The translations under genes and the position numbers were made by a program. A stretch of 64,000 bases of DNA from Calditrichota bacterium. Its GTDB lineage: Bacteria; Electryoneota; RPQS01. The DNA lies in the NCBI GenBank assembly GCA_020637445.1, contig JACJVZ010000003.1:210150-274149 (forward strand), given 5' to 3'. The notes under the pieces were generated by a model. The model was not told the origin of the DNA and ran no database searches. It saw only the letters and a program-made list of their open reading frames with translations. This document shows positions 2,890 to 50,135 of the stretch, in pieces. The first letter of the stretch is position 1. Each line of letters begins with the position of its first letter.

Positions 2890-3675
2890 TTATTGTTCCG
2901 AACCGTTATTTTCAAGTTGCTCGACTTCAAAGCTGTCGACCTTTCCGGCGCCTTCAGCATCGACTGCGAGCAGTTCGCGGACGATTTTGACTTCGCCGGG
3001 TGGCCCAATTTGTTCTTTAACCAATCCCACGCCTTGAGCAAACCAACGGACCGTTTGCCAATTGGCAACACCGCGCTCTTCGCTGTAGGCTTGTTCGTCC
3101 ATTTCATTCCGTTGGTAGCGGGCTTCAATGGAATCGGCAACGGCGGGCAGCGGGGTCACAACTGTTTTCAGACAGTCTTCGAATTTTCCGGCAGGAACCG
3201 TGACGGTTTCAAATCCGGCGACAATCGTCTCCGTCCCGGTCTGCTCGTTGTACCACGCGCTGTCCAAAGCGGCGCCTTCGTCCACCCATATTTGGTTAAA
3301 CGCACTAACCTGCGTCCGGGATTCCATGGACGTGAAGGAAATGCGGGTCGCGGCTTCGACGATGACTCCGTTGGAGCTGAACTCGATACCGCCGTACGGC
3401 GTGCCTTCGTCTTCACAGACATAGACTTTCCACGCGCGGCCGCCGATATACTTCATTGTCAGCGAATAATCGTAAGATTCACCGTTACCCTTTTCGTGAT
3501 AGCGCAATTTGCGGCCGTCCATTAAGGGCATGAATTCCGTCCCTCCTCGGTAGAGAGTGCGGGTCGCGACGTCGCCGCAAGCGGAAAAAAGCAGCGCCGC
3601 GATAATCACGGCAAAGATAGCTGCGCCGTTTAGGTGCGCGGTCGAAATGCGGGGAATTGCCTTCAAACTGATCAA
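2890..3675 (-). CDS. Hypothetical lipoprotein
   Basis: 261 aa; signal peptide ending in lipobox-like LLFSAC; no recognisable catalytic motif. Confidence 0.6.
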   Translation of the reverse strand: MISLKAIPRISTAHLNGAAIFAVIIAALLFSACGDVATRTLYRGGTEFMPLMDGRKLRYHEKGNGESYDYSLTMKYIGGRAWKVYVCEDEGTPYGGIEFSSNGVIVEAATRISFTSMESRTQVSAFNQIWVDEGAALDSAWYNEQTGTETIVAGFETVTVPAGKFEDCLKTVVTPLPAVADSIEARYQRNEMDEQAYSEERGVANWQTVRWFAQGVGLVKEQIGPPGEVKIVRELLAVDAEGAGKVDSFEVEQLENNGSEQ

Positions 3676-3676
3676 A

Positions 3677-5656
3677 TTACTTCAACAAAACAAGTTTCTG
3701 AGTTTCGACGAATGATCCGGCGGAAACTCGCAGGAGATAGACTCCGGTTGCGAAAGCCGCTCTATCTACCAGCAAGCTATGCACACCGGCATCGAAAACA
3801 TCATCAGCCAACGTTGCCGCTTCGCGGCCTTCGATGGTATAGAGTTTCGCCGACACATGTGAAGTTTGGGGTAAATCGAAAGCAACGCGCGTGACGGCGT
3901 TGAAAGGATTGGGATAGGCCGGATACAACACGAAGGATTCGGCAAGATCTGGACGATCCGGCGAATCCAACGCCAAAATATAGACTCCGACTTCATCTGC
4001 TGTGTCGGGGCAGGCATTGTGGTGAATGATGACCTCGCCGAAAAATTCGGATTCAGGGTGTTCGGGGTTGGTCAAGACGGACACGACGATCTCGCCCGAA
4101 GCTCCCGCCGCAATTTCGCCGGACTCGGGCGCGACATAGAGCCATCCATACGTGGGAGTGTGTTCAACGGTCTCGCAGGTAAACTGCAGAAGTCCGTCGC
4201 CGTCGTTTTGAACAGTTAACGTGTCACGCTCCCACCGTCCAAAAGTACCGATGATGTTGACGCTGGTCTTGTTGTTCTCGTATTGAGGAGTCCCGACGGT
4301 GAAATCAACGACGTTCTCCCCTCCCAAGACCAACTCGACCGATTGCGAATCCGGGGCAATGCACGGTCCCGTAATCAGTAAGGTCGCCTCGCTTTGATTT
4401 GTACCAAGCAAGTATGCACCTTGTTCGTCGGTGATCGTGAAATCTCCGGTTTCAACGACTTCGACTCGCACGCCGGACAACGGCTCATTTGTGCCTTGCG
4501 CCCGAACGATTCCGTTGACGATATAGCCGGGACCAAAGCGGTATAAGCGCGCGGCGTAGTCCGTAGACTGGAACGTCGTTCCGAAGATCAGTCCAGCACT
4601 GCCGCGGTTGTGCATGCCGCGCAGATCCACTCCGTCTGCCGAAAGCTCCGCCGAATGGTCGCTGTTACCGGACGAGTTTAACGTATATATCCGGCCTGTG
4701 AACGGCCCGACTTCGCTCGCAGTTGACCCGCACACAGTTGCGCCGCCGTCATCCGTAGGTCGAATACCGGAGATGCCAAAGAACTCGCCGTCTAACCCCG
4801 TCAAAGTCCAAACATAATTTCCGCTTGAGGTGAGCTTGTAAGCCCACGGCCAATAGATTCCGAAATCAAAGCCCTCATTCCCCGCGACATAGATATTTTC
4901 GTCGTCATCGAGTGCGATGGCTTGCGGCATGATGCGCATGATATCCGGAGAAGGATAGTCATTCATCCAAACAGTGCTTCCCGTAGGCGTGGTTCGTGCC
5001 ACAAATGCATCAAAAGTGAACGCATCCGTGGTCAACCAACCTGCGACCGCCAAGTCGCCATTGGCGAACTCTTGAACACAAGCTCCTTGACTTCCCCCCT
5101 GTCCTGAAACACTTGCAGTCCAGAGCGTGTCGCCGTTAGAGTCGAATTTGATTAGCAGATCGGATTGGGACCCGCTGTTGTCATACATACCCGTATACAA
5201 AACGAGTCCGTTGTCACGGGTCGCACAAATTCCCGCTTTGTTTTCGGGATAGGCGATGTCCAAGTCAAAAGAGATCTCGCCTTGAACGGCTCCGACATCG
5301 TTGATTCGGAGTACCGAGAGAGACGGCAAAGAGTCATTGTCAGACGTAACAACTCCAACTAACGCGATCTGGCCGTCTTCAAATTGCTCCATGCCAAGTA
5401 GGGTGCAGTAGTCACCCTGAAATGACACGGTTCCGTTCCAAACTTGGCTTCCAGTGGCATTCAGCCGCCACAGATCGATGCCCGCATCAGCATTGTGGGC
5501 GCTGGCCACCATTGTATGCCCGTTTTGCAGAATGATTGCGGACTGAACCCATTGAAAAGAGCTCAGGTCAATTTGTTGAGACCAAAGGGTGTCGAGTTCG
5601 GCGCGAGCCGGTTGCATGACAAAGAACAGCAGGACGATGAATCCAAATGACTTCAT
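3677..5656 (-). CDS. Secreted beta-propeller-repeat protein with T9SS C-terminal sorting domain (paralog 1 of 3)
   Basis: Start taken at internal Met (MKSFGFIVLLFFVMQPARA) preceded by AAAGGAG; ORF-track model 3677..5737 begins upstream of the signal peptide. C-terminus YPAYPNPFNAV...GVYLLRVSAGSFVETQKLVLLK is a Por/T9SS CTD. Confidence 0.8.
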   Translation of the reverse strand: MKSFGFIVLLFFVMQPARAELDTLWSQQIDLSSFQWVQSAIILQNGHTMVASAHNADAGIDLWRLNATGSQVWNGTVSFQGDYCTLLGMEQFEDGQIALVGVVTSDNDSLPSLSVLRINDVGAVQGEISFDLDIAYPENKAGICATRDNGLVLYTGMYDNSGSQSDLLIKFDSNGDTLWTASVSGQGGSQGACVQEFANGDLAVAGWLTTDAFTFDAFVARTTPTGSTVWMNDYPSPDIMRIMPQAIALDDDENIYVAGNEGFDFGIYWPWAYKLTSSGNYVWTLTGLDGEFFGISGIRPTDDGGATVCGSTASEVGPFTGRIYTLNSSGNSDHSAELSADGVDLRGMHNRGSAGLIFGTTFQSTDYAARLYRFGPGYIVNGIVRAQGTNEPLSGVRVEVVETGDFTITDEQGAYLLGTNQSEATLLITGPCIAPDSQSVELVLGGENVVDFTVGTPQYENNKTSVNIIGTFGRWERDTLTVQNDGDGLLQFTCETVEHTPTYGWLYVAPESGEIAAGASGEIVVSVLTNPEHPESEFFGEVIIHHNACPDTADEVGVYILALDSPDRPDLAESFVLYPAYPNPFNAVTRVAFDLPQTSHVSAKLYTIEGREAATLADDVFDAGVHSLLVDRAAFATGVYLLRVSAGSFVETQKLVLLK

Positions 5657-5737
5657 AAGGGCTCCTTTCGGGATGCAGCGCAATGACGAAAGACATTTGG
5701 TCCGGGCGGGACCCACTCCCGGGCCGGAAAAGAACAA

Positions 5738-7726
5738 TTAGCGAATATACAGCAATTTCTGGACGGCGAAGGTATTCGGCATCGCGGCCCGAACGAAATA
5801 CAGTCCGGTCGCTTCTCCGGACAAATCAATGTTTATATTGTGATTGCCAGCAGACATGCGACCGTCGACAAGAGTTTTTACCCATTTCCCTGCAATGTTA
5901 TACACCTCCAAGCGGGCGACAGTTTCATTGGGAATCGAGAGTGTAATTGAGGTGTTGCTATTGAAGGGATTTGGATAGGCCGGCGACAGTGAGAACTGGG
6001 CCGGGAGCTCGGAGTGATCGTTGACATCGAGCACACTGACCAGAATGGGTAAAACCATCACGGTGTCTGGACAGGCGTTGCTTCGGATGGTCAGTTGCCC
6101 GTAGAACTCAAAGTTTCCATCGTTGGTGGTGTCAGCATGAGCAGTTATGACGGCGGAAGTGCTTGCATTGGGCGCCAAAACTCCGTGATCAGGCGCAACC
6201 GTGAGCCACGCTCCCGGAGGAGAAATTCCTTCGACGCTGAGAGTGTAGTTCAGGCTACCCGAACCGGAATTGGAAAAAGAAACGTTCGCGGTGCCGTCGG
6301 TCTCGTTTTGCGAAATGATATTGACGCTCGATTGGAGATTCGCAACGTTGGGTTCGCCGACTTCAAAATTTATTTGGACCGACTCGTTCTCGACCACTTG
6401 GACTCCGAAGACGGTATCCGCTTCGATACAGGCACCGTTGACAACAAGGTTATAGGTTCCGGCTTCAATATCAAATTGATAGACTCCATCTACGTCCGTG
6501 AGCGCGTAACGCAGTCCTCCCGAATCCGAGACGCGGGCACCGGGTACGGGATCTCCGGTTTCGGCGCTGCGTACGATTCCGTGAATTCCTGCGGGCGGCG
6601 CTAAAGACAAAATGTAGGCACTGACAGCGTTGTCGTCGGCAACGATTGCACCGACTGCAACAGCTCCGCCGCTGGAGTAGCGAACGATATTGTTGAATCC
6701 GCCTTCTGCGCCGAGATTTCCATAGCGCCACACCCAGCGCGTGAGGTTTTCGTCATCCACCGCGCGCATGAACGGGCCGGTGTCCGTTGCACCGGGTCCG
6801 GACTTTCCGACGAATAACATGCCACCGAACCACGGAGTCGCACCGACAAAACGATCGGCGAAACCTGTTGAGCTAAAGGCGAGCGAATAAGGCGCTCCAT
6901 CTGTAGGATGCACTCCGACAAATCCCGAAGTGCCGTTGACATCGCTTCTGCCTACGATCCAAAGAGTTCCGACCGGGTCGGCAATGACATTAAAGCACGT
7001 TTCGTAGTTGGACGTGCCATAGGTTCGACCCGTACCGATTTGATTTCCGTCCAAATCGAATTCAAGCTCCCAGACGTCCGTGGAGCCCGCGCCGTAACTT
7101 CTGGTTTGAGCGGCGACGACCAGATTACCATCGGGTTTTTGAATGATATCGTTGCCGATATCGGTGTCATTTCCGCCCACCGTACGCGTCCAAACGGTAT
7201 CGCCGTTGGCTTCACACAAGAGTACCCAGACATCTGAATGTGTGGGGTCCGTTGTGCCGCCTCGGTATCCCGTCACGGCGAAGCGGCCGTCGGTAAGTTT
7301 GCAGAGATTCCAGCTTTTGGTCCGGCCTTCGCGAGCATACCCTCTTTGCCACAGGACTTCGCCGGTGGACGCCAGGAATGAGACGAGGCTCACCTCTCTT
7401 CCGTCTTGAATATCCCATCCGGCGGCAACCATCGTGTCGCCGGACAGAGCGATCAGACCGTTGAGCGATTCATTGTCCGTGGAGGCCAAGACGGTTTGCG
7501 CGTAGACCGAATCACCGGACGTGGTGTAGGCACAGATGAGATAGTCATAGTCGGGATCGGTAAAACCGATTTGGGCATAGCCGACTCCGACGATCAGGGT
7601 ATCGTGCACCACGGCGGCGTCGTACAGATAGCATCGATCATTGACCAGAAAAGAGCGCGACCACGTAGTATCGGGCTGCGCAAAGGAAAGACACGGCAGG
7701 AGCAACAGGAGCAGCAGCGCAGGCAT
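5738..7726 (-). CDS. Secreted beta-propeller-repeat protein with T9SS C-terminal sorting domain (paralog 2 of 3)
   Basis: 662 aa; signal peptide MPALLLLLLLPCLSFA; carboxypeptidase-regulatory-like middle domain (GIVRSAETGDPVPGARV); CTD AYPNPFNSNTSI...GLYFVRAAM...KLLYIR. Confidence 0.8.
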   Translation of the reverse strand: MPALLLLLLLPCLSFAQPDTTWSRSFLVNDRCYLYDAAVVHDTLIVGVGYAQIGFTDPDYDYLICAYTTSGDSVYAQTVLASTDNESLNGLIALSGDTMVAAGWDIQDGREVSLVSFLASTGEVLWQRGYAREGRTKSWNLCKLTDGRFAVTGYRGGTTDPTHSDVWVLLCEANGDTVWTRTVGGNDTDIGNDIIQKPDGNLVVAAQTRSYGAGSTDVWELEFDLDGNQIGTGRTYGTSNYETCFNVIADPVGTLWIVGRSDVNGTSGFVGVHPTDGAPYSLAFSSTGFADRFVGATPWFGGMLFVGKSGPGATDTGPFMRAVDDENLTRWVWRYGNLGAEGGFNNIVRYSSGGAVAVGAIVADDNAVSAYILSLAPPAGIHGIVRSAETGDPVPGARVSDSGGLRYALTDVDGVYQFDIEAGTYNLVVNGACIEADTVFGVQVVENESVQINFEVGEPNVANLQSSVNIISQNETDGTANVSFSNSGSGSLNYTLSVEGISPPGAWLTVAPDHGVLAPNASTSAVITAHADTTNDGNFEFYGQLTIRSNACPDTVMVLPILVSVLDVNDHSELPAQFSLSPAYPNPFNSNTSITLSIPNETVARLEVYNIAGKWVKTLVDGRMSAGNHNINIDLSGEATGLYFVRAAMPNTFAVQKLLYIR

Positions 7727-7777
7727 CGTTAAACCTCAGTTGCTAAGTTGAACATAAAAAAGCGGCGGTAAGAACAA

Positions 7778-9772
7778 TCAGCGAATGTACAGCAGTCTTT
7801 GGGTTTGACTGCGGGAGTGATCGGACAAGCGAACAAAATACAATCCGGACGCCAGTCCCTTTGCCTCCCACGACAGGGAATGTTCTCCGGCGGGGAGTTT
7901 CGAATGACTCAGCAGCACGGCGACCTCGCGTCCCGTGACGTCATAGACCCGCAGTGAGACGTCGGACTCGTGATCGAGACCGAACCGCAAGCGTGTGACG
8001 TTGTTGAAGGGATTGGGATAGGCGGGATAGAGCGCAAATTCGGACGGCAAGGCGGGAGCGTCGTCGGCATCGAGTACGACGGCCAGCACATCAAAAGTCA
8101 AGACCGTATCGGGACACGAATTAGTGTGCAGCTTGAGTTCGCCGAAGAAATCGTAGTTTCCGCTGTCGTTGGTGTCGGCCTCGAGAATGACTTGAGCGAC
8201 AAGCGTGCTTCCCGGTGCCAGTCGTCCAAAGGGAGGTTCGACACGAAGCCAGTCATCAGGCGGAATTTCGGTCAGGGGTTCGAAGGAATAGACCAGATCG
8301 CCGCTGCCGGAATTTGAAAATCTCAGGTCGGCGGCGCCCTGTCCATGATTGGGGCCGACGACGTTGATCGAGGAGTAGCTGACGGCGAGATTGGGGACGC
8401 CGGCAGTGATATCGGCTTGAGTATTCTGGTTGGCGAAGACCTCAATACCGTGAACAGTGTCGCCGGCGAAACACGGTCCGCCCGAGAACATCGTGTAAAC
8501 TCCGGGCGGCAGAGCGAGGGCAAACCGTCCGACCGTATCTGAAACGGCATATTGCGGCAGTTCAGCGGCCTGCACGCGCACTCCGGCAACAGGTTCGTTG
8601 GTGACACGATTATGAACGACGCCAGAGATACCCGACGGCGGACTAATCCGCCACATCAGCATGTTATCATGTCCGGAGGTGTTGGCTCTTCCGCAGGCGA
8701 CAAAACCACCGTCGGAGATACGAACCAAATCTTCGAAAGCCCGGCCCAATTCCGTGTCTGTCCAGGTCCAACTTGTGTCCCCGTTGGTCGTCGTCGCCAC
8801 AAGCCACAACCTGCCGGAATTTACACTGGCGCCGGTTTGTCCGGCGAACAGGGTTCCGCCTTCAAGATAGGGAGCGACACCGGTAAATTTCTCGCTGCCA
8901 CGTCCGTCGGTATAGGTTCGTTGCCAAAGTGTTTCTCCCGCGGAATTGAGACGCATGGTGAAAGCATCGCGCAGAGAACCGGAACGGGATTCCCCCGTGA
9001 CAACGACGTCCCCGCTAACGGAATCCACGGTCGCCGCGAAAACCTGCTCGTAGTCTGAATCACCGTATGTCCGTTCACTGATAAAATTGCCGTCGCTGTC
9101 CGTAATCACGATATAGAAATCAAAGTGACGACTGGTGTCGGGATCGCTGGTCGTGCCGACGAGCAGGAGGTTTCCATTGGGCACACGTACGATCTCGTTG
9201 GGCCAATCAGGATTTGATGTGCCAAATGTCCTTGAATAGAGCGAATCGCCATTCGAGTCACAGCGCATCAGGTAGAAATCGAGCGATCCTCCGGGGCCGG
9301 TTCGTCTACCAGCTACATAAAACCCGCCGTCCTGATTGGGCAACAGCGCGGCCGCTTGGTCGGAGCCAGACCAGAAAAACTCCCTTGACCAGACGAAATC
9401 ACCTTGCTGTGAATAGCATACGACCAGTGAGTTTAGGCTTGAATCATGGCCGCACGCCACCAGATTGCCATTTGTAAGCACATCAACGTCAAATAGTTGC
9501 TGAACTGAATTGGGAACTCCGAAAATGCGGGACCAAAGAGTGTCACCAAGCGGATCGTAGCGCACGATGATTGCATCGTCAGAGTTGCCTGCGAACACAG
9601 AGCCAACCGCTACGAACCCGCCGGTGCTAAGCTCAATACAGGAATTTAGTGAAGAGGCGGATCCAAGATCGTAGATACTGGTCCATAGGGTGTCCACCTG
9701 CGCGGAGGCACGAGTCGTCAGACCTGACAAAAGAAGCAGCGCAAGGGCGAGAGTGAATGGCTTGAAACTCAT
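7778..9772 (-). CDS. Secreted beta-propeller-repeat protein with T9SS C-terminal sorting domain (paralog 3 of 3)
   Basis: 664 aa; signal peptide; same domain order as the two downstream paralogs; CTD AYPNPFNNVTRL...GLYFVRLSD...RLLYIR. Confidence 0.8.
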   Translation of the reverse strand: MSFKPFTLALALLLLSGLTTRASAQVDTLWTSIYDLGSASSLNSCIELSTGGFVAVGSVFAGNSDDAIIVRYDPLGDTLWSRIFGVPNSVQQLFDVDVLTNGNLVACGHDSSLNSLVVCYSQQGDFVWSREFFWSGSDQAAALLPNQDGGFYVAGRRTGPGGSLDFYLMRCDSNGDSLYSRTFGTSNPDWPNEIVRVPNGNLLLVGTTSDPDTSRHFDFYIVITDSDGNFISERTYGDSDYEQVFAATVDSVSGDVVVTGESRSGSLRDAFTMRLNSAGETLWQRTYTDGRGSEKFTGVAPYLEGGTLFAGQTGASVNSGRLWLVATTTNGDTSWTWTDTELGRAFEDLVRISDGGFVACGRANTSGHDNMLMWRISPPSGISGVVHNRVTNEPVAGVRVQAAELPQYAVSDTVGRFALALPPGVYTMFSGGPCFAGDTVHGIEVFANQNTQADITAGVPNLAVSYSSINVVGPNHGQGAADLRFSNSGSGDLVYSFEPLTEIPPDDWLRVEPPFGRLAPGSTLVAQVILEADTNDSGNYDFFGELKLHTNSCPDTVLTFDVLAVVLDADDAPALPSEFALYPAYPNPFNNVTRLRFGLDHESDVSLRVYDVTGREVAVLLSHSKLPAGEHSLSWEAKGLASGLYFVRLSDHSRSQTQRLLYIR

Positions 9773-10008
9773 GGAAACTAAAGATATAACAATTGGTTAG
9801 CTGTGCTCGAAGGCAGTTCTTGTAAACTATTAATATACCATAGTCTCATGGCCTCTTCAAGTTCCTCTTGGAAGATTGAGCAATTAAGTGGTGGTTACGG
9901 TGCCCAGCCGAGAATTGTGTTTGCCGGACCTCGCTGGCTCTTGAGAGTTGTTTTCTTTTAGTTTATATTTACGTTTTAGGAAAAAAGTCAGAGTTTCGGG
10001 AGTTGACC

Positions 10009-10980
10009 ATGTATCGCATCGCTCTTAGTTTGATGATCCTTCTTTTCCCAATGCTCACCGCATCGGGATACACGGTGTCCGGCAACATATCCGGTCGCGA
10101 AGGTGCGGCACTCACGTATGTTTATACGATTCCGACGAGTCTGGACACGTTCTACATCGCGATCGCGAATTTCCTGAATGGCAATTACTCACAGGGTAAT
10201 CTGGACGAGGGAAGTTACATCATATTCTCATTTCAGGATGCGAATTTCAGCTTTTTGCCCGATCCGGACGAATCGCGGGGATTTTACGGCGGAGAAGTAC
10301 CACAGACGTTGGACGTGTCGTCCGATTTGACAGGCATCGATATAGAACTGATGCCGCCGAACACAGGAGGATTTTCCGGTACGACGACGTACGAAGGCAG
10401 TGAAACGGGACCGACGTATGTTTTTGCACACCGGACGAACACGTTTGACGGCCTGCCAAGCGGAGCGGGAATTTTGCTCAACAATTCGGGAAGTGGAGAC
10501 TACACGGCGATAGTGGACAGCTTTGGAGTTTACTACGCGTTCGCGTTCATGGATGTGAATTCGAACTTTCAGTACGACGTGGGTGAACCCTACGACGTAT
10601 ACGGCGACGATCTTGAACCTGAGCCGATTACGATTACTCAGGGACAATCGTTTCCGGACAACATAAATTTCACTCTCGTAGCGACGTCTTCCGCAGCCGC
10701 GCCGACCGTGGCCGTTTCCGATTTCGAGCTTGGCCAAGCCTATCCCAATCCGTTCAATCCAGTCGCGACGATTCCTTTCACATTGGAAAGAACGTTGAGT
10801 GTTGAGATCGTGGCTTGCGACATCCTTGGACGAACGGTGCGAACACTGCACTCGGGGGTTTTACCCGCCGGCGAACACAGCGTTACCTTTGACGGCAACG
10901 GATTGGCGAGCGGACTCTACATTATCGAATTGCGCACACAAAACCACTCATCATGCACTCCCGCCGTGCTGTTGAAATAG
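10009..10980 (+). CDS. Secreted protein with T9SS C-terminal sorting domain
   Basis: Start at first ATG (MYRIALSLMILLFPMLTASG) with GGGAG upstream; the ORF-track start 10003 is TTG. CTD AYPNPFNPVATIPF...GLYIIEL. Confidence 0.7.
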   Translation: MYRIALSLMILLFPMLTASGYTVSGNISGREGAALTYVYTIPTSLDTFYIAIANFLNGNYSQGNLDEGSYIIFSFQDANFSFLPDPDESRGFYGGEVPQTLDVSSDLTGIDIELMPPNTGGFSGTTTYEGSETGPTYVFAHRTNTFDGLPSGAGILLNNSGSGDYTAIVDSFGVYYAFAFMDVNSNFQYDVGEPYDVYGDDLEPEPITITQGQSFPDNINFTLVATSSAAAPTVAVSDFELGQAYPNPFNPVATIPFTLERTLSVEIVACDILGRTVRTLHSGVLPAGEHSVTFDGNGLASGLYIIELRTQNHSSCTPAVLLK

Positions 10981-13900
10981 TTTGGCTCATAGGGCTCCTG
11001 ATTTTAGCCGCCGGACTGCGCGTTCCGACGGCACGCGGGGAAGCTCTCTTTGTTCGGGGAGAAGTCACGGGAATTTGGAGTGCGCCGATAGACACGGTGG
11101 TGATTGACAGCTTCGCGTGGGTTCCCGCTGCGGAGACATTGCAGATAGCGCCCGGAATGGTTGTGGCCTTTTCCGGGCGTTTTTCATTGTTGGTCAACGG
11201 AACTCTGTTAGCCAACGGCGAAGGCGATGATTCCATTTTCGTACAGAGCATTCCGTACCACGATTCCAACGGTCATCTTGGAATCAGGTTCTACGAAACC
11301 ACCACGATCTCGCGGCTGAACAAGGTCAAGTTCGAGGACGGGTTCGCGAACTCGGGTAACTTTGAACGCTACGGCGGAGCGCTTGAACTCTATTTCTCGG
11401 AAGTTGAAATAGACTCTTGTTTATTTCAAGGCAATCGCGCGCGCATCGACGGCGGAGCAATTTATTGCCGCGAAGCGGGGACGCTGACGGTGCGAGCCTC
11501 GGAGTTTGAAGGCGACAGCACACGGTTTGGCGGAGGCGGCGCAATTTTGGCGCGGACGAGCGGTTACGTGCGGCTGACGCGCTGTAGATTCACGAACAAC
11601 TCGGCGGCGGTAAGCGGCGGCGCGGTCACTTCGGAGAGCGGCGTCGTGGTTGAACTTGATAGCTGCTATTTTGCGAATAACTTTGCCGTCAACAAAGCCG
11701 GCGGGCTCTACCTCTGGTCGACTCCTCCGGCAAGCTGGATTCGCAATTGCGTGATTGAAGAGTGCGTGGCCGATCAGGGCGGCGGAATCTTTACGGACAA
11801 CTGCCGGGCGACGATCGACGGATGCACGATTCGGAATTGCTTTGCCCGCTTGGGCGGCGGATTAGGCGCGCGACGGTCGAATAATCTTACGACCCTTTCG
11901 CACACGACGATTACGGGAAACGCCGCCAATGAAGACGGCGGCGGACTCTACATTACGGAGGCCGCGCGCTGCACGGTCGAGAATTGTTTGATTGCGAACA
12001 ACACGGCCACACGCGGCGGGGGAATCTTCACAGTCGCGTCCACTTCGCCGACGATTCGCTTCACGACATTTGCAGGAAATATTGCGCAAGGCGGATCGGC
12101 TCTGGATTTCTACGGCGGCGGCGAAATTTACAATTCAATTGTCACAGGTGAAACCGGAGACGCTCTGGTCAATTACGGCGCCACCGCTTCACCGACGGTT
12201 TCCTATACGAACATCTTCTCAAACTCGGTGCCTGAGTTGTCGGGAGTTCATCCTGAGTGGCTGCTGGAAAACACGAGAATGAATGTCGCGCTGGTGGAAT
12301 GTGACTCGCTGAGAAACATCTCATTCGATCCACAATTTGTAAATTCCGACAGCGGTGATTTCAATCTTTCGGACATAAGTCCGTGCTTGTTCGGTGCAGA
12401 TACAAGCTATTCGAGCGGTGCTGATCTCGCTGGAAATCCACGGGTGTCTCCGCAGGGAAGTTGGCCGGATATGGGGGCATATGAGAACGATGCGCCGCTG
12501 CCGTATTTTCAGAATTGCGGACCGCAGCGCGGAGTTTGGTTTCCGGGCGAGTACGTTGTCGGCTGTTCTTTGAGAGTTGAAACCTCTGATACTCTTGTTC
12601 TGATGGGCGGCGCGACACTCTTGTTCGCTCCCGGAGCCGGACTATATGTTGAGGGAACGCTGCTGGCGATGGGCACCGCGCACGATTCGATCGTCTTTGA
12701 CCGCTATTTTGACTTGCCGGACGCGACGTGGAACGGGATTTCGCTGGCATCCTCGACCACAAATTCACGACTGAATTATTGTTCCGTGCGGCACGTCGTA
12801 GGAGCGTCGGCACTGACGACCAGCGAACCAGCCACACAACTCAACCATTGCACGTTTTCATTGAACGAGCACGTCGGCGGTGGCGGAGGAGCCGCAAGCG
12901 CGCTGCAAAACTCGTCACCTGTTTTTACAAGGTGCACATTTAAGCAGAACCGCGCAACCACGGGCGGAGCAGTTAGTGCCCTGACAGGACACATCGACTT
13001 TCGCGGATGCTTGTTTGACCACAACGAGGCGGTAAACTTCGGTGCTCCATTCACTGCACTTGGCGGCGCGGTGAAATGCGAAAACGGGAGCTTCTCGGAG
13101 TGCTTGTTTGTTTCCAACACGGCCTACGAGGGCGGCGGCGTCGCATTGGATCATACGGGGATTTTTACAGACTGCGAATTCGACTCATGCGCGGCATGGA
13201 AAGGCGGCGGCCTGTCGCTCGGCGGGGGAACGGCGGAGCTTTACCGGGTTGAGTTTCGCGGCAATCAAGGAAAGGATTTCGGCGGAGCTGTGTGCATGGG
13301 CGAGGCGGTACTTTCGGACAGCGGCAGCTTTTACATAGGCAATCGCGGTGCAAACGGCGGAGCGATCGCGAATCTTCATGGCGGGTACTCGGGAACAGAC
13401 ACTGAGTATAGTGACAACTCGGCCGACAATGAAGGGGGAGTGATTTGGCTGGGAAATGACCGAGCGGCATTGTTTTTTACGTGCACACTCCACCGCAACC
13501 ACGCGAAGACCGGTGGAGCAGTTTGGGGAGACGCGGCAGGCATCGACTTTTTCCGCTGCTTATTGGACAGCAATTATGCGACGGAAGCGACGGGCGGAAT
13601 TTACTTGCTCGGCGGAGGCGTGTCCTTCTTGCGTTCGACGGTCGTAAATCACCATTCGCCCGGGCAAGGCACGGTCGTGCAAAACCGTTTCAATTCGGTG
13701 TTGTGGTGCAACTCGACTCTGTTTGCCGAAAACGGCGACAGCCCCATTTCCGTTCACAGCGGAGTGCAGAACGACTTCCGGTATTCGATGAGTGACGTGC
13801 TCATCGTAGCCGGCGACGATTCGATCGGATTTCCGAGCAGGGTGAATTTTAACGGCGATTCGTGCGACGCGGATTTGAATCTTGTGGCTGAACCGTTGTT

Positions 13901-14624
13901 TGTCGATTATGCGGCTCGCGACTACCGGTTGCAGAGCGAATCCAAAGCGGTGCAGGCGGCAGATTCGCTGCTTCCGCTCGACGACGACGGAACGCGCGCG
14001 GATATTGGGCTCTATCCGGGTATTCGTCCGTACCTGCTTTTGCAGCCTTTCAATCTTGCGTGGCCTGAACGGAACGCATACTTTCATCCGGGCGATACGG
14101 TGGCGTTTGCATGGAATTCATCGTGGGACGGCGATCCGGGAGACGAAATAGACTATTCACTACATTTGCACAGCGAGTCGTTTGACACGGCTATTACAAC
14201 GGGCAGCGAACTTGGCCATACGGTAATACTGCATAACGGGCAATATGAATGGTGGGTCGTGGCCGCGTCGCATCAACCGGAAACGGAACTGGAAAGTTTT
14301 GAGCGCCGGACGTTTGTCGTCACCGATCCTGACCTTGGCCTTGATGATGTTTTGTGGCCCCGGGAGTTTTCAGTTTCGATGGACGGACCGAATCCGTTTA
14401 ACAGCGCAACGCGACTGCGGATTACTCTTCCCCACTCCACTGAAGTGACGGTAACATTGGTTAACGTTTTGGGCAGAACGTCATTCGCGATTCGTGAACG
14501 TGAATTTGTAGCTGGGGTCCATAGCATTTCAATTGATGGGACTCGGCTCGGTTCGGGTGTGTATTGGGCGCATGTTAAAACGAGTTTAGGAACGAAAACT
14601 CTTCAATTACACTTGATCAAATAG
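10953..14624 (+). CDS. Pmp-like parallel beta-helix repeat protein with T9SS C-terminal sorting domain
   Basis: 1223 aa; signal peptide; ~18 GGA[IVL]/GGG[IVL] and F-x-x-N motifs (DGGAIYC, FQGN, FTNN, FANN...) as in polymorphic-outer-membrane-protein repeats; CTD NPFNSATRL...GVYWAHVK. Start overlaps upstream gene by 28 nt, so start is uncertain. Confidence 0.8.
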   Translation: MHSRRAVEIVWLIGLLILAAGLRVPTARGEALFVRGEVTGIWSAPIDTVVIDSFAWVPAAETLQIAPGMVVAFSGRFSLLVNGTLLANGEGDDSIFVQSIPYHDSNGHLGIRFYETTTISRLNKVKFEDGFANSGNFERYGGALELYFSEVEIDSCLFQGNRARIDGGAIYCREAGTLTVRASEFEGDSTRFGGGGAILARTSGYVRLTRCRFTNNSAAVSGGAVTSESGVVVELDSCYFANNFAVNKAGGLYLWSTPPASWIRNCVIEECVADQGGGIFTDNCRATIDGCTIRNCFARLGGGLGARRSNNLTTLSHTTITGNAANEDGGGLYITEAARCTVENCLIANNTATRGGGIFTVASTSPTIRFTTFAGNIAQGGSALDFYGGGEIYNSIVTGETGDALVNYGATASPTVSYTNIFSNSVPELSGVHPEWLLENTRMNVALVECDSLRNISFDPQFVNSDSGDFNLSDISPCLFGADTSYSSGADLAGNPRVSPQGSWPDMGAYENDAPLPYFQNCGPQRGVWFPGEYVVGCSLRVETSDTLVLMGGATLLFAPGAGLYVEGTLLAMGTAHDSIVFDRYFDLPDATWNGISLASSTTNSRLNYCSVRHVVGASALTTSEPATQLNHCTFSLNEHVGGGGGAASALQNSSPVFTRCTFKQNRATTGGAVSALTGHIDFRGCLFDHNEAVNFGAPFTALGGAVKCENGSFSECLFVSNTAYEGGGVALDHTGIFTDCEFDSCAAWKGGGLSLGGGTAELYRVEFRGNQGKDFGGAVCMGEAVLSDSGSFYIGNRGANGGAIANLHGGYSGTDTEYSDNSADNEGGVIWLGNDRAALFFTCTLHRNHAKTGGAVWGDAAGIDFFRCLLDSNYATEATGGIYLLGGGVSFLRSTVVNHHSPGQGTVVQNRFNSVLWCNSTLFAENGDSPISVHSGVQNDFRYSMSDVLIVAGDDSIGFPSRVNFNGDSCDADLNLVAEPLFVDYAARDYRLQSESKAVQAADSLLPLDDDGTRADIGLYPGIRPYLLLQPFNLAWPERNAYFHPGDTVAFAWNSSWDGDPGDEIDYSLHLHSESFDTAITTGSELGHTVILHNGQYEWWVVAASHQPETELESFERRTFVVTDPDLGLDDVLWPREFSVSMDGPNPFNSATRLRITLPHSTEVTVTLVNVLGRTSFAIREREFVAGVHSISIDGTRLGSGVYWAHVKTSLGTKTLQLHLIK

Positions 14625-14652
14625 TTTATCAACCAGTATAGATATCGATGCG

Positions 14653-14687
14653 GGAGGTCGGCTGCGATGCCGACCTCTCTTTTTTTC
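14653..14687 (+). terminator. Intrinsic terminator after the Pmp-like gene
   Basis: Stem ggaggtcggc / gccgacctc with loop tgcgat, followed by tctttttttc. Confidence 0.75.
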
Positions 14688-14877
14688 ACAATGTACGCAA
14701 AGTCGGCTTTTCAAGCAGATTTTGCGGGTGAATGCTGATGCAAATCATTGAATATAGTGTTCTTTGAAATTCGACAAACTTAATCAAGGTTTTTTGATAA
14801 TTGCTCTGATTCTCTTGCACTTGCGCGAACCAGAAGGTAATTTGTAGGTGACACTAACAGTAAAAGGGGATTATGTC

Positions 14878-17800
14878 ATGAGAGCAAGGATTTTGCTGTT
14901 GAGCCTTGCGGCACTGATGATGATCGGAGAGCGGGGAGTGCTCGCTGATTCAGCACAAGTATCTGAAGTCCGTGGCCAAAGATTGCGGACGGAACTGCAA
15001 AAGACGAACGATTCGGCAAAACAGAGAGCGATCAGAAAAGAGATTTCGCAGCGTGCGCAGACTCGGGAGCGGAGAGACTCGCGCGAACGGTTGGATCAGG
15101 GAGGAGAAACATGCTCTTTGCCGACGGACTTGACAGGAATGCCGATTCCGATTGTCGTGTCCGGAACCACCATCGACTTCGCGGACGACTACAATTGTGC
15201 AGGATTCGGTCCCGCGCCTCCGCCCTGCTGGACAGGCTACTACGATCAGCTGACTTCGTGTTCCGGGCCGGACGTGGTCTACAGGTTTACACCGCCGGCA
15301 GACGGGGATTACCGTTTTTCGTTGTGCAATTCGGATTACGACACGGGAATCCTGATCTTTAACGATAACTGTCCGCCGAATTTTCCGACGGACTTCGTCT
15401 GCGGAAACGACGACTATTGCAATGTTCAGACTGAGATCGTATCGCTTTCTCTGACCTCCTCGCAACCGATATTGGTTATTATCGACGGCTGGAATGGTGA
15501 TGCGGGAAACTACGAGTTGGTGATTGATTTTGCGGAGCCGCCGCCGCCCAACGACGATTGTTTCGGTGCACAGTTCATCGAGGCGCCGTCTTTGGTGTCA
15601 GGATCGACGGCCAATGCAACGTATGACGATGCGCCGTTCGTCTGCGGAGGGTCGGTCATCGACGGTCCGGGAGTTTGGTATACGACTCTGGGAACTGGAA
15701 ATACGATGACCGTGAATACGTGCTTGCTGGACGGCTATGACACTCAGATCGCCGTTTACCAAGGAGGTTGTACGGGTTTGACGTGTGTTGACGGCAATGA
15801 TCAATTCTGCCTGAATCAGAGTCAAGTGACGTGGTGCAGTCAAGCGGGAGAGCAGTATTTCATTCTCGTGCACGGTTATCAGGGACAGGCCGGAGATTTT
15901 GTGTTGGAACTCACGGACGACGGCATCCCGTGCGGAGGAACGACGCCTGTACTATCCATCCTTGAAGTTTACGAGAACTTGCCGGACTTGGTAGGTCAAC
16001 AGGTGACCATCCGGGGCTTTGGTTCCGGCCCGAATCAGGGGATTATCACGGAAACTGAAGGTGATTGGCTGCGCAACACGGAGCTTGAGCCGTATTCGGC
16101 GCTCAAAGTAGTCGGACTTGATCCTTGGAATATTTACATTCCTGAGTTGATGTGGGGGCAGTACATCGAAGTGCAAGGTATCATTGGCGCGATTCCGATC
16201 TCGCCGGACGTGCCGCCGGGATATGAGGCCACGATTGAAGTCAACGCGCCTGCGGTCGTGGTCCCGAGCACGCCGCATGTGCCGGTAACTCAGGGAAATT
16301 GGCGGCCAGCCAATTGGACTCCAGACACGACGAATTGTGATACGTGCAATTTCGGGATGTTCATCTCGGGCGGAATCGACAGTGCAAACAACCGGGACGA
16401 CTACTGGGATGATTTGGTTGATTTCTACTGTTACAAAACCGGCGCCGGGTATTGTCCGCAGAATATCAACATCTACTATTTCAAAGGCGACACGCTGGAC
16501 GGTAGAATACCTCCTGCGCGAGTGGACTCTTGCACACAGGCAAAGATTCAGGCCAGAATCAATGCGATTGCCAGCAAGGTCAAGGCTTGCAAAGATGCTG
16601 GCAAAACACCCAAGGTTGAGATTGTCGTGACGAATCACGGAAAACATCCTCCCAACGGTGGAATCAATATTCTGGGCCGCGACGGGGCCGGCAGTTCAAA
16701 CGCGATATCGCCGCATGATTTCACATCCATGATCCAGACTTTGTGCGATTCTGGAGCTGCAAATATCGAGATTGAGTTAGGCGAGTGCTTCAGCGGACAG
16801 ATGGTCAATCATCTTCGCGACAGTTTGGACACTAAAGGCGCAAATGTCACGGCAGCTTCGGCGGCGCCGGATTCACTTTCGAGTTGGAGCAAAGGCAAGA
16901 AGGGCGGCTGGAACCGTTGGCTGAATCCGTTGGTTTGCGCGAGATACTCGGGAGAAAGCCTTCCCGAAGCGATTCGTAGAGCGAATCAAAGCTACGACTC
17001 TTCTCTTGTGCAGCTTGATTCGTTGTTCCGGGCATGGGCAGCTTATCTCGATTCACTTGGTACACACGGAGACTCGGTGAAGGCCGCCAAGTACCGCCGG
17101 TGGGCCAGCGACGCCATCAACGGCAAGGGCGGAGAAACCGTTTGGTTCAGCAGAACGTTCAAAGAATCGTGCAACGGAGACACGATATCGGTTTCGCCGG
17201 GCGGCAGACTTGAATTCACGTATTCCGGTCCGAACTCGAGCTGCGGCAACAGCGAGATTATTTGCAAAAACACGGCCGGCCATTGGATCAATTACCGCCA
17301 TTGGAATTGGAACGTACCGGGCTCCGCGGGTTACCACACTGGCAACAATGTCCGCACGTTGGATGCCGGTGCGGGACACACAGGACTCTACGTCATTCAC
17401 AGTTTGAGTGATTCATTCAGGGTTTCTATCAAATCCATCAATCCACCGCTTCCTCCAAGTCTTTTGACCTCTGCTTCGAATCCTGAAGACTATGCGGGCT
17501 TCGGTGTGGGCTGGACATCGGGAAATTCGGATGAATTCGGGGCAATCAATACGGCCACACTGACACTCCCGGACGTGGACGACGACGGATTTGATCTGTC
17601 GACGGCTCCGAAACTGCTCGGCCCGGGCGGAGTGGGACAATTGTTCGCGGACTTTGACGTGTTGGCGGAGAACTATTGGTGGACGGACATGCGGGTTTAT
17701 ATGCGCGTGCTCGGAGGAACGGCCGGTGTGACGGTGACAGCGGACTGTCCCGATTGCGAATTCTCCAATGTTTCGTACGATCTCGCGGGCGGAGACGAGA

Positions 17801-18144
17801 AATTTTATTTGAACCTCGGTTCGATCAACGTGGTGGGTTCACATACGTTGTCGCTCACGGCGACCGGAACAACGGAATTGGATTGTTGGGGACTTGAATC
17901 GGCACACTCGACGGGAACACCGCTGCCTGTGACGGATCTTGTGATCATTCGTGACGGCGACAACATCAACCTTCACTGGAGCGCGGTGCCGCTTGCCGTC
18001 AGTTATTTGGTACAGAGAGCTGCATCCGAGAATGGGCCGTGGGCAACCATTGGATTGGCTTTCGGAACGACTTTCGTGCATACGGGACAAGCGGCGTCCT
18101 CAGACGAGCAGCTTTACTACCAAGTGATCGCGGTTAGTCCGTAG
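14878..18144 (+). CDS. Large secreted multidomain protein: two PPC-like jelly-roll domains, clan-CD (legumain/gingipain-like) cysteine peptidase candidate, C-terminal Fn3-like domain
   Basis: Start at ATG (MRARILLLSLAALMMIG) with AAAGGGG upstream; putative His-Cys dyad in strand-associated motifs IVVTNHGKHP and IEIELGECFSGQM; no T9SS CTD. Confidence 0.75.
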   Translation: MRARILLLSLAALMMIGERGVLADSAQVSEVRGQRLRTELQKTNDSAKQRAIRKEISQRAQTRERRDSRERLDQGGETCSLPTDLTGMPIPIVVSGTTIDFADDYNCAGFGPAPPPCWTGYYDQLTSCSGPDVVYRFTPPADGDYRFSLCNSDYDTGILIFNDNCPPNFPTDFVCGNDDYCNVQTEIVSLSLTSSQPILVIIDGWNGDAGNYELVIDFAEPPPPNDDCFGAQFIEAPSLVSGSTANATYDDAPFVCGGSVIDGPGVWYTTLGTGNTMTVNTCLLDGYDTQIAVYQGGCTGLTCVDGNDQFCLNQSQVTWCSQAGEQYFILVHGYQGQAGDFVLELTDDGIPCGGTTPVLSILEVYENLPDLVGQQVTIRGFGSGPNQGIITETEGDWLRNTELEPYSALKVVGLDPWNIYIPELMWGQYIEVQGIIGAIPISPDVPPGYEATIEVNAPAVVVPSTPHVPVTQGNWRPANWTPDTTNCDTCNFGMFISGGIDSANNRDDYWDDLVDFYCYKTGAGYCPQNINIYYFKGDTLDGRIPPARVDSCTQAKIQARINAIASKVKACKDAGKTPKVEIVVTNHGKHPPNGGINILGRDGAGSSNAISPHDFTSMIQTLCDSGAANIEIELGECFSGQMVNHLRDSLDTKGANVTAASAAPDSLSSWSKGKKGGWNRWLNPLVCARYSGESLPEAIRRANQSYDSSLVQLDSLFRAWAAYLDSLGTHGDSVKAAKYRRWASDAINGKGGETVWFSRTFKESCNGDTISVSPGGRLEFTYSGPNSSCGNSEIICKNTAGHWINYRHWNWNVPGSAGYHTGNNVRTLDAGAGHTGLYVIHSLSDSFRVSIKSINPPLPPSLLTSASNPEDYAGFGVGWTSGNSDEFGAINTATLTLPDVDDDGFDLSTAPKLLGPGGVGQLFADFDVLAENYWWTDMRVYMRVLGGTAGVTVTADCPDCEFSNVSYDLAGGDEKFYLNLGSINVVGSHTLSLTATGTTELDCWGLESAHSTGTPLPVTDLVIIRDGDNINLHWSAVPLAVSYLVQRAASENGPWATIGLAFGTTFVHTGQAASSDEQLYYQVIAVSP

Positions 18145-18175
18145 GACCCAAGAAACCAGAACTGGGGAGAGGGAA

Positions 18176-18225
18176 CGGGGCGCGGCTCGCAAGAGTCCGC
18201 CCCGTTTCTGCTTGTTTTGGGTTTT
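18176..18225 (+). terminator. Intrinsic terminator candidate after the clan-CD peptidase gene
   Basis: cggggcg...cgccccg stem followed by tttctgcttgttttgggtttt. Confidence 0.5.
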
Positions 18226-20026: not shown

Positions 20027-20044
20027 TTGAACAAATTGCAACCT

Positions 20045-20521
20045 ATGCACTCCTTCCTCCAAAATCTCGTCAACTACAACACGTGGGCGAACAATGAAGT
20101 TGTTGAGTCGCTCAGGAGTTGTCCGGAAGTGCCGCGCGACGCGGTGATACGGCTGTCGCACATTCTGGAAAACAACTGGTATGTGCTGGACATTATTGAC
20201 GAGCAGGATCTTTCTAAATGGGATGCGGACCGGGATTACACCATTGACGAGTGCATCGCCGAAATTCCGAAGATTGACGCGGCGTACAAAAAGCTGCTTG
20301 GCGAGTTAAAGGACGAACAGCTTGAGTACTCCGTGCGATTCACGGACGTCGCTGGACGGAATGTTGAGCGACGGATTTCGGAATTGATATTTCACACGTT
20401 CGATCATTGCAGTCACCATCGCGGGCAGATTGCGATGATTGTTCGCGAAGCGGGCGGCGAGCCTGCACAAACTTGGTATAACCGGTGGATTCGCGAGACG
20501 GGTCGCGGAAAGAACTCTTGA
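20045..20521 (+). CDS. DinB/YfiT-like family protein
   Basis: First ATG of the ORF (MHSFLQNLVNYNTWANN...); C-terminal HTFDHCSHHRGQIAMI histidine cluster typical of the DinB fold. Confidence 0.75.
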   Translation: MHSFLQNLVNYNTWANNEVVESLRSCPEVPRDAVIRLSHILENNWYVLDIIDEQDLSKWDADRDYTIDECIAEIPKIDAAYKKLLGELKDEQLEYSVRFTDVAGRNVERRISELIFHTFDHCSHHRGQIAMIVREAGGEPAQTWYNRWIRETGRGKNS

Positions 20522-20535
20522 ATTGGTTTGAGCCG

Positions 20536-20742
20536 ATGGGTTGGATTTATCGTCCGCGTCATCTTTTGGGATGGGCAATTACACTTGCCGCCTGTGCGGC
20601 ATGTGTTTGGGTCTTTCTCGCCGTAGATCGCAATTCGCACTCGGCGAGCGACACACTTATCGGAGTTTTTCCCTACGCCGCGCTGTTTATTATTATTTGG
20701 GGCTGGATTGCTTCAAAAACTTCACTTCGACAAGGGAGCTAA
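20536..20742 (+). CDS. Small hypothetical membrane protein
   Basis: 68 aa from internal ATG; two predicted TM helices; no RBS seen; weak call. Confidence 0.3.
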   Translation: MGWIYRPRHLLGWAITLAACAACVWVFLAVDRNSHSASDTLIGVFPYAALFIIIWGWIASKTSLRQGS

Positions 20743-20744
20743 GC

Positions 20745-21161
20745 ATGGATTTGATGGACCTGATGAAAGGCGCAGGCAGTATTCTCGGCGATCAAGGCAA
20801 GGACGTGAACGTCGGCGGTCTGGCCGGTTCGGTCTTAGGTATGATTCAGAATGATTCCGGTGGTGTCGGTGGACTCGTCGAGCAATTTGCCAAGAACGGC
20901 ATGGGCGATATCGCAAAGTCTTGGGTCGGCTCGGGCAATAACCTGCCGGTGAACGGCGACCAGTTGATGCAGGTCTTCGGCGAACAAAAACTCGGCGCGA
21001 TGGCTGAACAATCCGGCATGAACTTGCAGAAGTTCCTCCCGATTCTCGTCGCCGCGCTGCCGATGATTATCGACAAACTGACTCCCGACGGCGAAGTCAA
21101 CGACAAGAGCAACAACATGCTTCAGCAAGGCATGGGTTTGCTGGGCTCGTTTCTGAAGTAA
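20745..21161 (+). CDS. YidB-like (DUF937) protein
   Basis: Start MDLMDLMKGAGSILG chosen inside ORF-track model 20541..21161; Gly/Met/Gln-rich composition typical of YidB. Confidence 0.65.
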   Translation: MDLMDLMKGAGSILGDQGKDVNVGGLAGSVLGMIQNDSGGVGGLVEQFAKNGMGDIAKSWVGSGNNLPVNGDQLMQVFGEQKLGAMAEQSGMNLQKFLPILVAALPMIIDKLTPDGEVNDKSNNMLQQGMGLLGSFLK

Positions 21162-21179
21162 TTGGTTTGGTGAAACACC

Positions 21180-22526: not shown

Positions 22527-22529
22527 AGT

Positions 22530-23021: not shown

Positions 23022-23024
23022 GTC

Positions 23025-50114: not shown

Positions 50115-50135
50115 ACAAACTCAGGAGGATTTCTC

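Follow-up and report, generated by a model that had tools for sequence, protein, structure and literature searches.

A run of seven genes at positions 2890 to 18144 of a 64-kb stretch of DNA from an uncultured Calditrichota bacterium (assembly GCA_020637445.1, contig JACJVZ010000003.1; the whole stretch is called the window here) is, in our judgement, quite likely a vertically inherited chromosomal series of genes for exported envelope proteins, arranged in at least three transcription units and including the gene for a legumain-like peptidase of clan CD. The leftward genes encode three beta-propeller paralogs (A, B and C) and a lipoprotein, and the rightward genes encode a small protein, a 1223-aa beta-helix protein and a 1088-aa protein with the legumain-like core. 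Five of the products end in a C-terminal sorting domain (CTD) of the T9SS (type IX secretion system). An earlier note on this DNA, made from the letters alone, had described about 14 kb of it as a cell-surface island, a label that is not upheld by its ordinary composition, by the lack of any mobility signature, or by the order and flanks of the genes, which are conserved in relatives. The seven open reading frames (ORFs) were recovered where the note had placed them. It had counted six of their products as secreted, and this was borne out when the N-termini were read directly for a hydrophobic stretch and an AxA-type site or lipobox; the seventh product, encoded at 2890-3675, also carries an export signal, the lipobox LLFSA↓C (the arrow marks the predicted cleavage site).

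Conservation of gene order and flanks

The same gene order is present in two other genomes, GCA_016702305.1 (locus L007) and GCA_964269295.1 (L008), the orthologs of which are only about 50% identical. In both, the propeller paralogs lie leftward, and the rightward series consists of the genes for the small protein, the beta-helix protein and the peptidase, followed by those for an aldehyde dehydrogenase, DinB proteins, YidB, an aminotransferase and a TP_methylase. Comparison with related genomes, which had been proposed as a way to locate the boundaries of an island, places the block within the same housekeeping flanks in both relatives. At the start of the leftward genes, the N-terminal 380 aa of paralog C share 47% identity with the N-terminal region of its positional counterpart in L007. 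The pair of genes for the small protein and the beta-helix protein is also found upstream of the peptidase gene in four further loci (L009, L010, L011 and L014). The sole difference in order concerns a gene for an SDF sodium:dicarboxylate symporter, which lies between the beta-helix and peptidase genes in L007 (8478-9782) and L008 (8452-9750); the corresponding place in the window (14625-14877) is occupied only by the terminator and about 250 nt of spacer. The symporter gene has thus been either lost in the lineage of the window or gained in its relatives.

The composition of the DNA was equally ordinary. GC content is flat across the window (about 0.54), with values of 0.52-0.56 for the cluster genes and of 0.59-0.61 at their third codon positions (GC3). 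The codon-usage distance between the pooled cluster and the rest of the window was 0.44, compared with 0.25-0.64 for control blocks of similar size, so that the comparison of GC and codon usage with the flanking genes, also proposed earlier, gives an island no support. Scans for island marks found no tRNA gene, Rfam RNA, integrase, insertion sequence (IS) element or flanking or boundary repeat. We do not regard the region as an island, most decisively because order and flanks are kept in two genomes with orthologs of about 50% identity.

The 664-aa protein encoded at 7778-9772 is present, residue for residue, on 16 public contigs (for instance JAGQRY010000015.1 of GCA_020439805.1), and the gene order of the window is repeated on each of those long enough to show gene order. 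The organism label of these records at NCBI is Calditrichaeota or Calditrichota bacterium. Paralog B is named there as a T9SS type A sorting domain-containing protein, the 1223-aa protein as a right-handed parallel beta-helix repeat-containing protein, and the 1088-aa protein as a hypothetical protein.

Transcription units

Judged from spacing, promoter-like sites and hairpins, the region is divided into three or more transcription units. One is an operon that runs leftward, another a rightward operon of two genes, and a further one the peptidase gene on its own. The two operons diverge from a common intergenic region, in which promoter-like sites, consensus matches only, were found at 9941-9969 on the forward strand (10 of 12 matches) and at 9860-9832 on the reverse strand (with an extended -10 TG). 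The leftward operon (9772 to at least 2890) would comprise the three anciently duplicated propeller genes followed by the lipoprotein gene. Its genes are tightly packed, with gaps of 51 nt, 78 nt (to the public start) and 1 nt, the last of these being the distance between the stop of paralog A and the start of the lipoprotein gene. The operon may continue through a downstream gene for a protein with TPR and thioredoxin domains.

The rightward operon (10003-14624), which would encode the small CTD protein and the double beta-helix protein, is closed by an intrinsic terminator at 14652-14679, with an 11-bp stem containing 8 GC pairs (-23.2 kcal/mol, z -4.95). The gene at 14878-18144 would be transcribed separately. 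It is followed by a hairpin at 18171-18209, with a 17-bp stem interrupted by one bulged base (-34.3 kcal/mol, z -3.5), which does not appear in the list from a consensus terminator scan because its T-tract is interrupted. Both hairpins had been noticed earlier, at 14653-14687 and 18176-18225, as marking the end of the cluster; both are present, the second as a candidate terminator, and the first is internal to the region and not its end.

T9SS sorting domains and the predicted export route

The CTDs lie at the extreme C-terminus of the proteins encoded at 3677-5737, 5738-7726, 7778-9772, 10003-10980 and 10953-14624, which match TIGR04183 with 34.1, 39.1, 42.1, 25.1 and 23.5 bits, respectively, all of them at or above the cut-off of 23 bits. 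The cut-off of the Pfam family Por_Secre_tail (PF18962; 27 bits) is passed by three of the five. The domains are about 75-85 aa long, and each of the five proteins begins with a Sec-type signal peptide, read directly as a hydrophobic N-terminus with an AxA-type site. A profile built from the five CTDs matched exactly two further proteins in the window (34874-38275 and 51598-54384), with agreement of Pfam for both, which brings the number of T9SS-CTD proteins in the window to the seven that had been counted before.

Within the first 20 kb, the only repeated DNA consists of the CTD segments that code for YPNPFN, at 3887-3934, 5948-5995, 7991-8038 and 10717-10779. These segments are 65-81% identical, whereas the paralogous proteins are only 26-33% identical, and the maintenance of the YPNPFN segment at the DNA level across diverged paralogs points to selection on the CTD signal.

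The five proteins resemble the T9SS type A cargo of the superphylum Fibrobacteres-Chlorobi-Bacteroidetes (FCB) in combining a signal peptide, modular Ig-like or binding domains and a C-terminal CTD. They differ from it in their host, which belongs to the Calditrichota and not to the Bacteroidota, and for this genome the translocon, shuttle and sortase are only presumed. Family scans with Pfam and NCBIfam covered the approximately 45 ORFs of the window, and none of these matched a T9SS component family, in agreement with the earlier statement that the window holds no machinery gene. Within the window the presumed cargo is indeed encoded apart from any secretion apparatus; this is no peculiarity. 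Genes for T9SS cargo usually lie dispersed in the genome and not beside those of the machinery, an arrangement that the present genes share with type A cargo.

From their sequences, the most likely export route of the five CTD proteins is the T9SS. They would be carried by Sec across the inner membrane and handed over through the CTD to a T9SS-type outer-membrane translocon, and would finally serve as binding or adhesin modules, either at the cell surface or released into the medium. Calditrichaeota have been placed in the FCB superphylum, and TIGR04183 occurs there (PMC5317091). Reviews describe the T9SS as specific either to the FCB superphylum or to the Bacteroidota (PMC12398890, PMC9170169, PMC10202324). 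A literature search found nothing relevant that links the T9SS with Calditrichota or Caldithrix, or bacterial legumains with the T9SS.

A legumain-like core in the 1088-aa protein

The last gene of the run had been taken for that of a 1089-aa peptidase candidate. The length is 1088 aa from the ATG at 14878, and the guess of a peptidase found support in a legumain-like core with an intact putative catalytic dyad. No model of Pfam or NCBIfam was matched by the full protein; under relaxed Pfam settings, the segments without a family gave matches at noise level only, and a PDB search with the N-terminal 464 aa as a single sequence returned nothing useful. The only match to a solved structure by sequence was that of the last 67 residues (1031-1097, numbered from the GTG at 14848) to the Fn3-like protein 3mpc (E=3.5e-5). 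The N-terminal domains are cysteine-rich and are common to other multidomain secreted proteins.

The core was analyzed with an alignment of 26 diverse cores (A2). Residues C23, C26, S33, C62, G73, C107, H123, G124, C173 and G176 of the core, along with six more in its C-terminal domain, are invariant in this alignment, core H123 and C173 corresponding to His587 and Cys637 of the protein. Across the family, 80 of 84 sequences have the His and 83 of 87 have the Cys (about 95%). The A2 profile matched the plant legumain-type ligase VdiPAL1 (9vsx) with E=5.7e-5, and the motifs align as LISGG with LIAG, TNHG with TNHG, and QC..G with EAC.AG (family and legumain, respectively). Three of the 26 relatives matched the Pfam family Peptidase_C13, the best with E=1.1e-5.

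An AlphaFold2 (AF2) model of the core based on the 26-sequence alignment was confident, with a pLDDT of 86.1 and a pTM of 0.88; a full-length model on a 4-sequence alignment (pLDDT 43) was unusable and was discarded. The catalytic dyad of clan CD sits directly after beta-strands of the alpha/beta fold. In the model of the core, the His follows strand 115-120 and the Cys follows strand 165-170. The model has the caspase-hemoglobinase alpha/beta fold with the order His-Gly and then Cys, and Foldseek matched its catalytic half to caspase-9 and caspase-6 with a probability of 1.0. CBM4/6/22-like matches over 112-141 aligned columns were obtained as well, and are attributed to the beta-sandwich at the C-terminal end of the model. 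Behind the catalytic domain the model has a helical hairpin (core residues 218-285), and the OaAEP1 proenzyme could be aligned over only 206 residues.

On the profile and model evidence, the core of this putative enzyme belongs to clan CD, lies closest to family C13 and is too divergent for the curated model. It departs from legumains of this family (plant asparaginyl ligases, GPI8) in several respects. No more than about 17% of residues are identical; the LSAM prodomain appears to be replaced by the helical hairpin and a jelly-roll with a WNWNxPGS motif; and the protein is a secreted one of bacteria, built of several domains, among them its cysteine-rich N-terminal domains and its Fn3-like end. 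It also has additional invariant cysteines, namely a CxxC (C23 and C26; 16336-16347) just before strand 1 and, nearby, C62 (16453-16455) and C107 (16588-16590). These may form disulfides or a metal site, and we know of no counterpart of them in legumain. The protein would be exported by Sec and act as an extracytoplasmic endopeptidase, and Asn specificity should not be assumed for it, given the residues at the S1 positions described below. Such a role would fit the peptide-fermenting habit of Caldithrix abyssi, the cultivated member of the phylum (PMC5317091).

Distribution of the legumain-like family

A word-indexed search returned only three full-length homologs of the 1088-aa protein (46-51% identity), together with many proteins that share just 11-31% of the query length. 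An exhaustive HMMER search with residues 465-900 retrieved 103 representative clusters, with E-values below 1e-30 for 47 of these. The 36 genomic loci that were obtained come from metagenome-assembled genomes (MAGs) labelled as Ignavibacteria, Zixibacteria, Eisenbacteria, Bacteroidetes/Bacteroidales, GN15 or unclassified "bacterium"; one Elusimicrobia and two Alphaproteobacteria labels among them look doubtful. All named members of the family are hypothetical proteins, and in no case is the core covered by a precomputed Pfam domain. A T9SS CTD ends 19 of 106 family proteins, and a signal-peptide-like N-terminus is present in 68 of the 96 members that start with Met, counts from which the family appears to be extracytoplasmic and in part T9SS cargo.

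Across the 36 loci no recurrent neighbour of the legumain-like gene was found, synteny being lineage-specific only, and for this reason we gave up the notion of a dedicated partner. The closest peptidase homologs (55-60% identity) are encoded in L009 and L010 (CAZHAK010000003.1 and CAZPKG010000007.1), which share the synteny with the beta-helix and small-protein genes and of which the label "uncultured Alphaproteobacteria" is probably wrong. In L009, the gene at 10093-12855 was considered as a tandem copy of the peptidase and rejected, as it lacks the core despite clustering with peptidases. Two genes with the legumain-like core stand in tandem in L030 (3517-6462 and 6834-9848), which comes from a Zixibacteria MAG, and a protein of 5041 aa (P0038) contains the core twice (residues 848-1258 and 3964-4378).

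The propeller paralogs

The three paralogs of about 660 aa share 26-33% identity over their full length, which indicates that the duplications are old. Their N-terminal portions (about 380 aa) contain seven GDxxW-type repeats at a spacing of about 50 aa, and a profile of this 380-aa region matched the beta-propeller of CylK (PDB 7fh6 and 7ron) with E=1.3e-37 in several blade registers. Full-length paralogy and the CylK match support the previous description of these proteins as three beta-propeller paralogs. The Pfam families SBBP and DUF5122 and the NCBIfam families LipL53 and delta-60 gave only sub-threshold matches to the propeller region. Downstream of it, CarboxypepD_reg was matched by paralogs B (38.6 bits) and C (40.4 bits), and CarbopepD_reg_2 by paralog A with 27.1 bits, under the cut-off of 32.2 bits. 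A BACON_2-like match was found in paralog B (35.0 bits) and, under the cut-off, in paralog C. Por_Secre_tail scored 39.6 bits in paralog B and 40.4 bits in paralog C. Each paralog would thus begin with a signal peptide and a propeller of about seven blades of the SBBP/CylK type, continue through two Ig-like domains, one of the CarboxypepD_reg type and one resembling BACON, and end in a type A T9SS CTD.

The repeated CylK blade matches and the weak SBBP, DUF5122, delta-60 and LipL53 matches liken these proteins to the SBBP/CylK propellers, among which are Leptospira lipoproteins of the LipL53 type. They differ from these in the fusion of the propeller to Ig-like domains and a CTD and in a Pfam SBBP match below threshold, and from CylK in that they lack its N-terminal domain and give no sign of alkylating chemistry. 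The sole family match of the 261-aa lipoprotein was a sub-threshold one to DUF3108_like.

The small CTD protein and the beta-helix protein

The small protein was correctly recognized as a T9SS-type protein, its CTD being matched by Pfam (Por_Secre_tail, 31.8 bits) as well as by TIGR04183. Its N-terminal 230 aa matched no family, the relaxed Pfam scan included, and no solved structure in a single-sequence PDB search. The gene overlaps the beta-helix gene by 28 nt, and retention of this overlap in L001, L007 and L008 suggests translational coupling.

The 1223-aa product fits its previous characterization as a Pmp-like beta-helix protein, with Beta_helix (95.2 bits) and Chlam_PMP (43.4 bits) matches above cut-off and an enrichment of the motifs GG[AG][ILVMF] (16 compared with 0.8 expected) and FxxN (13 compared with 3.8 expected). 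The motifs are concentrated in two blocks, at residues 141-355 and 671-887. A PDB search with the single sequence gave nothing useful. Like chlamydial Pmp proteins, it has GGA[ILV] and FxxN repeats spaced by about 25-28 residues, a right-handed beta-helix and the Chlam_PMP match. Pmp proteins, on the other hand, are secreted by the type V route through an autotransporter beta-barrel, and no autotransporter domain was found by Pfam or NCBIfam in the 1223-aa protein, the C-terminus of which is the T9SS CTD. As the CTD replaces the barrel, it shares with Pmp proteins the passenger repeat and not the secretion family.

Alternative explanations

Several results weigh against the favoured reading of the run as vertically inherited genes for T9SS-type cargo and a clan CD peptidase. 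Two of the five CTDs fall under the Pfam cut-off (22.8 and 20.3 compared with 27 bits), though both reach that of TIGR04183. The propeller fold of the paralogs is a matter of profile similarity and not of a structure model. The 1088-aa protein gives no Peptidase_C13 match at E<=1, and the Arg-His pair of the legumain S1 pocket (YRHQAD) is not kept in it, the profile positions reading K-Y-W instead of R-H-Q in a loop where the alignment is less certain. The same protein has no CTD, and its final place could be either the periplasm or the outside of the cell. As to the export route, Bacteroidetes-type gliding machinery shares GldK, GldL, GldM and GldN with the T9SS. This machinery was not found in the genome of Caldithrix abyssi (PMC5317091), and for that reason we infer the T9SS route of the CTD proteins rather than take it as given.

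The last point, together with the lack of machinery genes among the ORFs scanned and of any literature link between T9SS and Calditrichota, would suit a lineage in which the CTDs are real and a canonical T9SS is absent, the domains serving as an Ig-like stalk or addressing a different exporter. We hold this to be unlikely, as the CTDs reach the TIGR04183 cut-off and always stand at the extreme C-terminus behind a signal peptide, the YPNPFN region is conserved at the DNA level in a manner that implies selection on the signal, and scattered cargo genes are usual for the T9SS; moreover, TIGR04183 is a marker of the FCB superphylum, this phylum included (PMC5317091). Horizontal acquisition of the region as a genomic island with a surface-protein cargo is very improbable. 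Secreted-protein genes are clustered, as they might be on an island, and the GC3 of the cluster lies slightly under the 0.62-0.75 of the cytoplasmic housekeeping genes of the window, but other secreted or hypothetical genes of the window are equally low in GC3. Flat GC, a codon-usage distance inside the control range, the absence of mobility marks, the ancient duplications and, above all, the same block and flanks in genomes with orthologs of only about 50% identity argue for inheritance with the chromosome.

For the legumain-like domain, a catalytically dead scaffold or binding module was considered, and appears distinctly unlikely. Failure to reach the Peptidase_C13 threshold, the lack of conservation of the legumain S1 residues and the position of the domain among several putative binding domains would be in keeping with it. 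The His-Gly and Cys, however, are invariant in A2 and nearly so across the family, and in the model both dyad residues stand directly after the two strands at the usual place in clan CD; a lost dyad can be recognized in the few members that carry Q/E or S/A substitutions, and the 1088-aa protein is not one of these. The legumain-like enzyme and its neighbours might alternatively form one functional system, in which the enzyme would process or transpeptidate the adjacent CTD proteins. The analogy is with GPI8 and the plant asparaginyl ligases, which belong to C13, and with the T9SS sortase PorU, which belongs to C25 and is also of clan CD, all of which act on C-terminal signals. We consider such a system quite improbable, since no family neighbour recurs outside the Calditrichota-like group, the peptidase gene is parted from the CTD operon by a terminator here and by a transporter gene in the relatives, and the CTD-bearing family members are themselves cargo. 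A PorU-like sortase identity was considered and rejected, as the PorU model NF033707 does not match the 1088-aa protein. Equally little credence is given to the broader idea that the whole uncurated, FCB-restricted clan CD family, with its legumain-like core, invariant CxxC and WNWNxPGS jelly-roll, consists of transpeptidases or maturases of surface proteins comparable to GPI8, the plant ligases and PorU; if this were true, function would explain why the gene stays next to CTD cargo in this lineage. A sortase-like or ligase role of the protein is accordingly possible but unlikely, and we favour that of a secreted endopeptidase encoded next to, and separately from, the CTD proteins.

Features and neighbouring genes of the window

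The coordinates of the features are collected in Table 1. Downstream of the propeller operon and on the same strand lie genes for an ankyrin-repeat protein (112-657) and for a TPR-plus-TlpA/ResA-like thioredoxin with a signal peptide (1372-2847), and both may be co-transcribed with the operon. On the other side, downstream of the aldehyde dehydrogenase gene, 20027-23498 encodes three DinB/DinB_2 proteins, a YidB-like protein and a 448-aa membrane protein of unknown family, in an arrangement conserved in L007 and L008. Just upstream of the CTD gene with the nucleotidase domain, 49026-51371 encodes a 362-aa beta-helix protein and then a 411-aa secreted repeat protein without a family match, the Fn3-like end of which resembles, by eye, the C-terminus of the legumain-like protein. 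Two ORFs of the window without a family were read by eye as a ResB-like membrane protein and a secreted repeat protein; elsewhere in the window, the family scans indicated housekeeping functions.

Table 1. Positions of the genes, domains and signals discussed in the text (window coordinates)
Positions	Strand	Feature	Details
2890-18144		Seven genes with export signal	ORF coordinates as in the earlier note
2890-3675	-	Predicted lipoprotein, 261 aa; last gene, abuts propeller operon	N-terminus ...AVIIAALLFSAC, lipobox LLFSA↓C
3677-5659	-	Propeller paralog A, 659 aa from ATG 5656 in public gene calls	ORF reaches TTG 5737; signal peptide MKSFGFIVLLFFVMQPARA↓E
5738-7726	-	Propeller paralog B, 662 aa	Signal peptide ...CLSFA↓Q
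7778-9772	-	Propeller paralog C, 664 aa; first gene of predicted leftward operon	Signal peptide ...TRASA↓Q
9773-10002		Divergent intergenic region between the two predicted operons	Best promoter-like sites of 20 kb scanned
10003-10980	+	Small CTD protein, 325 aa from TTG 10003	Public calls: 323 aa from ATG 10009
10953-14624	+	Pmp-repeat right-handed beta-helix protein with T9SS CTD, 1223 aa
14652-14689	+	Intrinsic terminator after small-CTD and beta-helix operon	Stem 14652-14679, then TTTTTTT
14878-18144	+	Secreted multidomain protein, 1088 aa	Legumain-like clan CD core (predicted), Fn3-like end, no CTD
16270-17577	+	Conserved core, residues 465-900	Caspase/legumain fold (modelled), helical hairpin, jelly-roll beta-sandwich
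16636-16638	+	Codon of putative catalytic His587	VTNHG; translation checked
16786-16788	+	Codon of putative catalytic Cys637	GECFSG; translation checked
18171-18225	+	Terminator candidate after peptidase gene	Hairpin 18171-18209, T-rich tail
34874-38275		VWA-domain protein with T9SS CTD, 1133 aa	CTD profile and Pfam
51598-54384		Protein with 5'-nucleotidase C-terminal domain and T9SS CTD, 928 aa	CTD profile and Pfam

Implications

The cluster itself adds T9SS-type cargo of an ordinary kind from a phylum that has been little studied, and the label of an island should be dropped. Dense CTD cargo in this window, set beside the reported absence of gliding machinery from the cultivated member, raises the question of whether Calditrichota possess a complete T9SS. 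Only the legumain-like family of clan CD peptidases, for which no curated Pfam or NCBIfam model exists, exceeds what routine annotation offers. Its members fall into about 100 sequence clusters and come exclusively from uncultured bacteria of the FCB superphylum (Calditrichota-like, Ignavibacteria, Zixibacteria, Eisenbacteria and Bacteroidota), and it is a candidate new family of clan CD, possibly a source of new specificities or of ligase chemistry.

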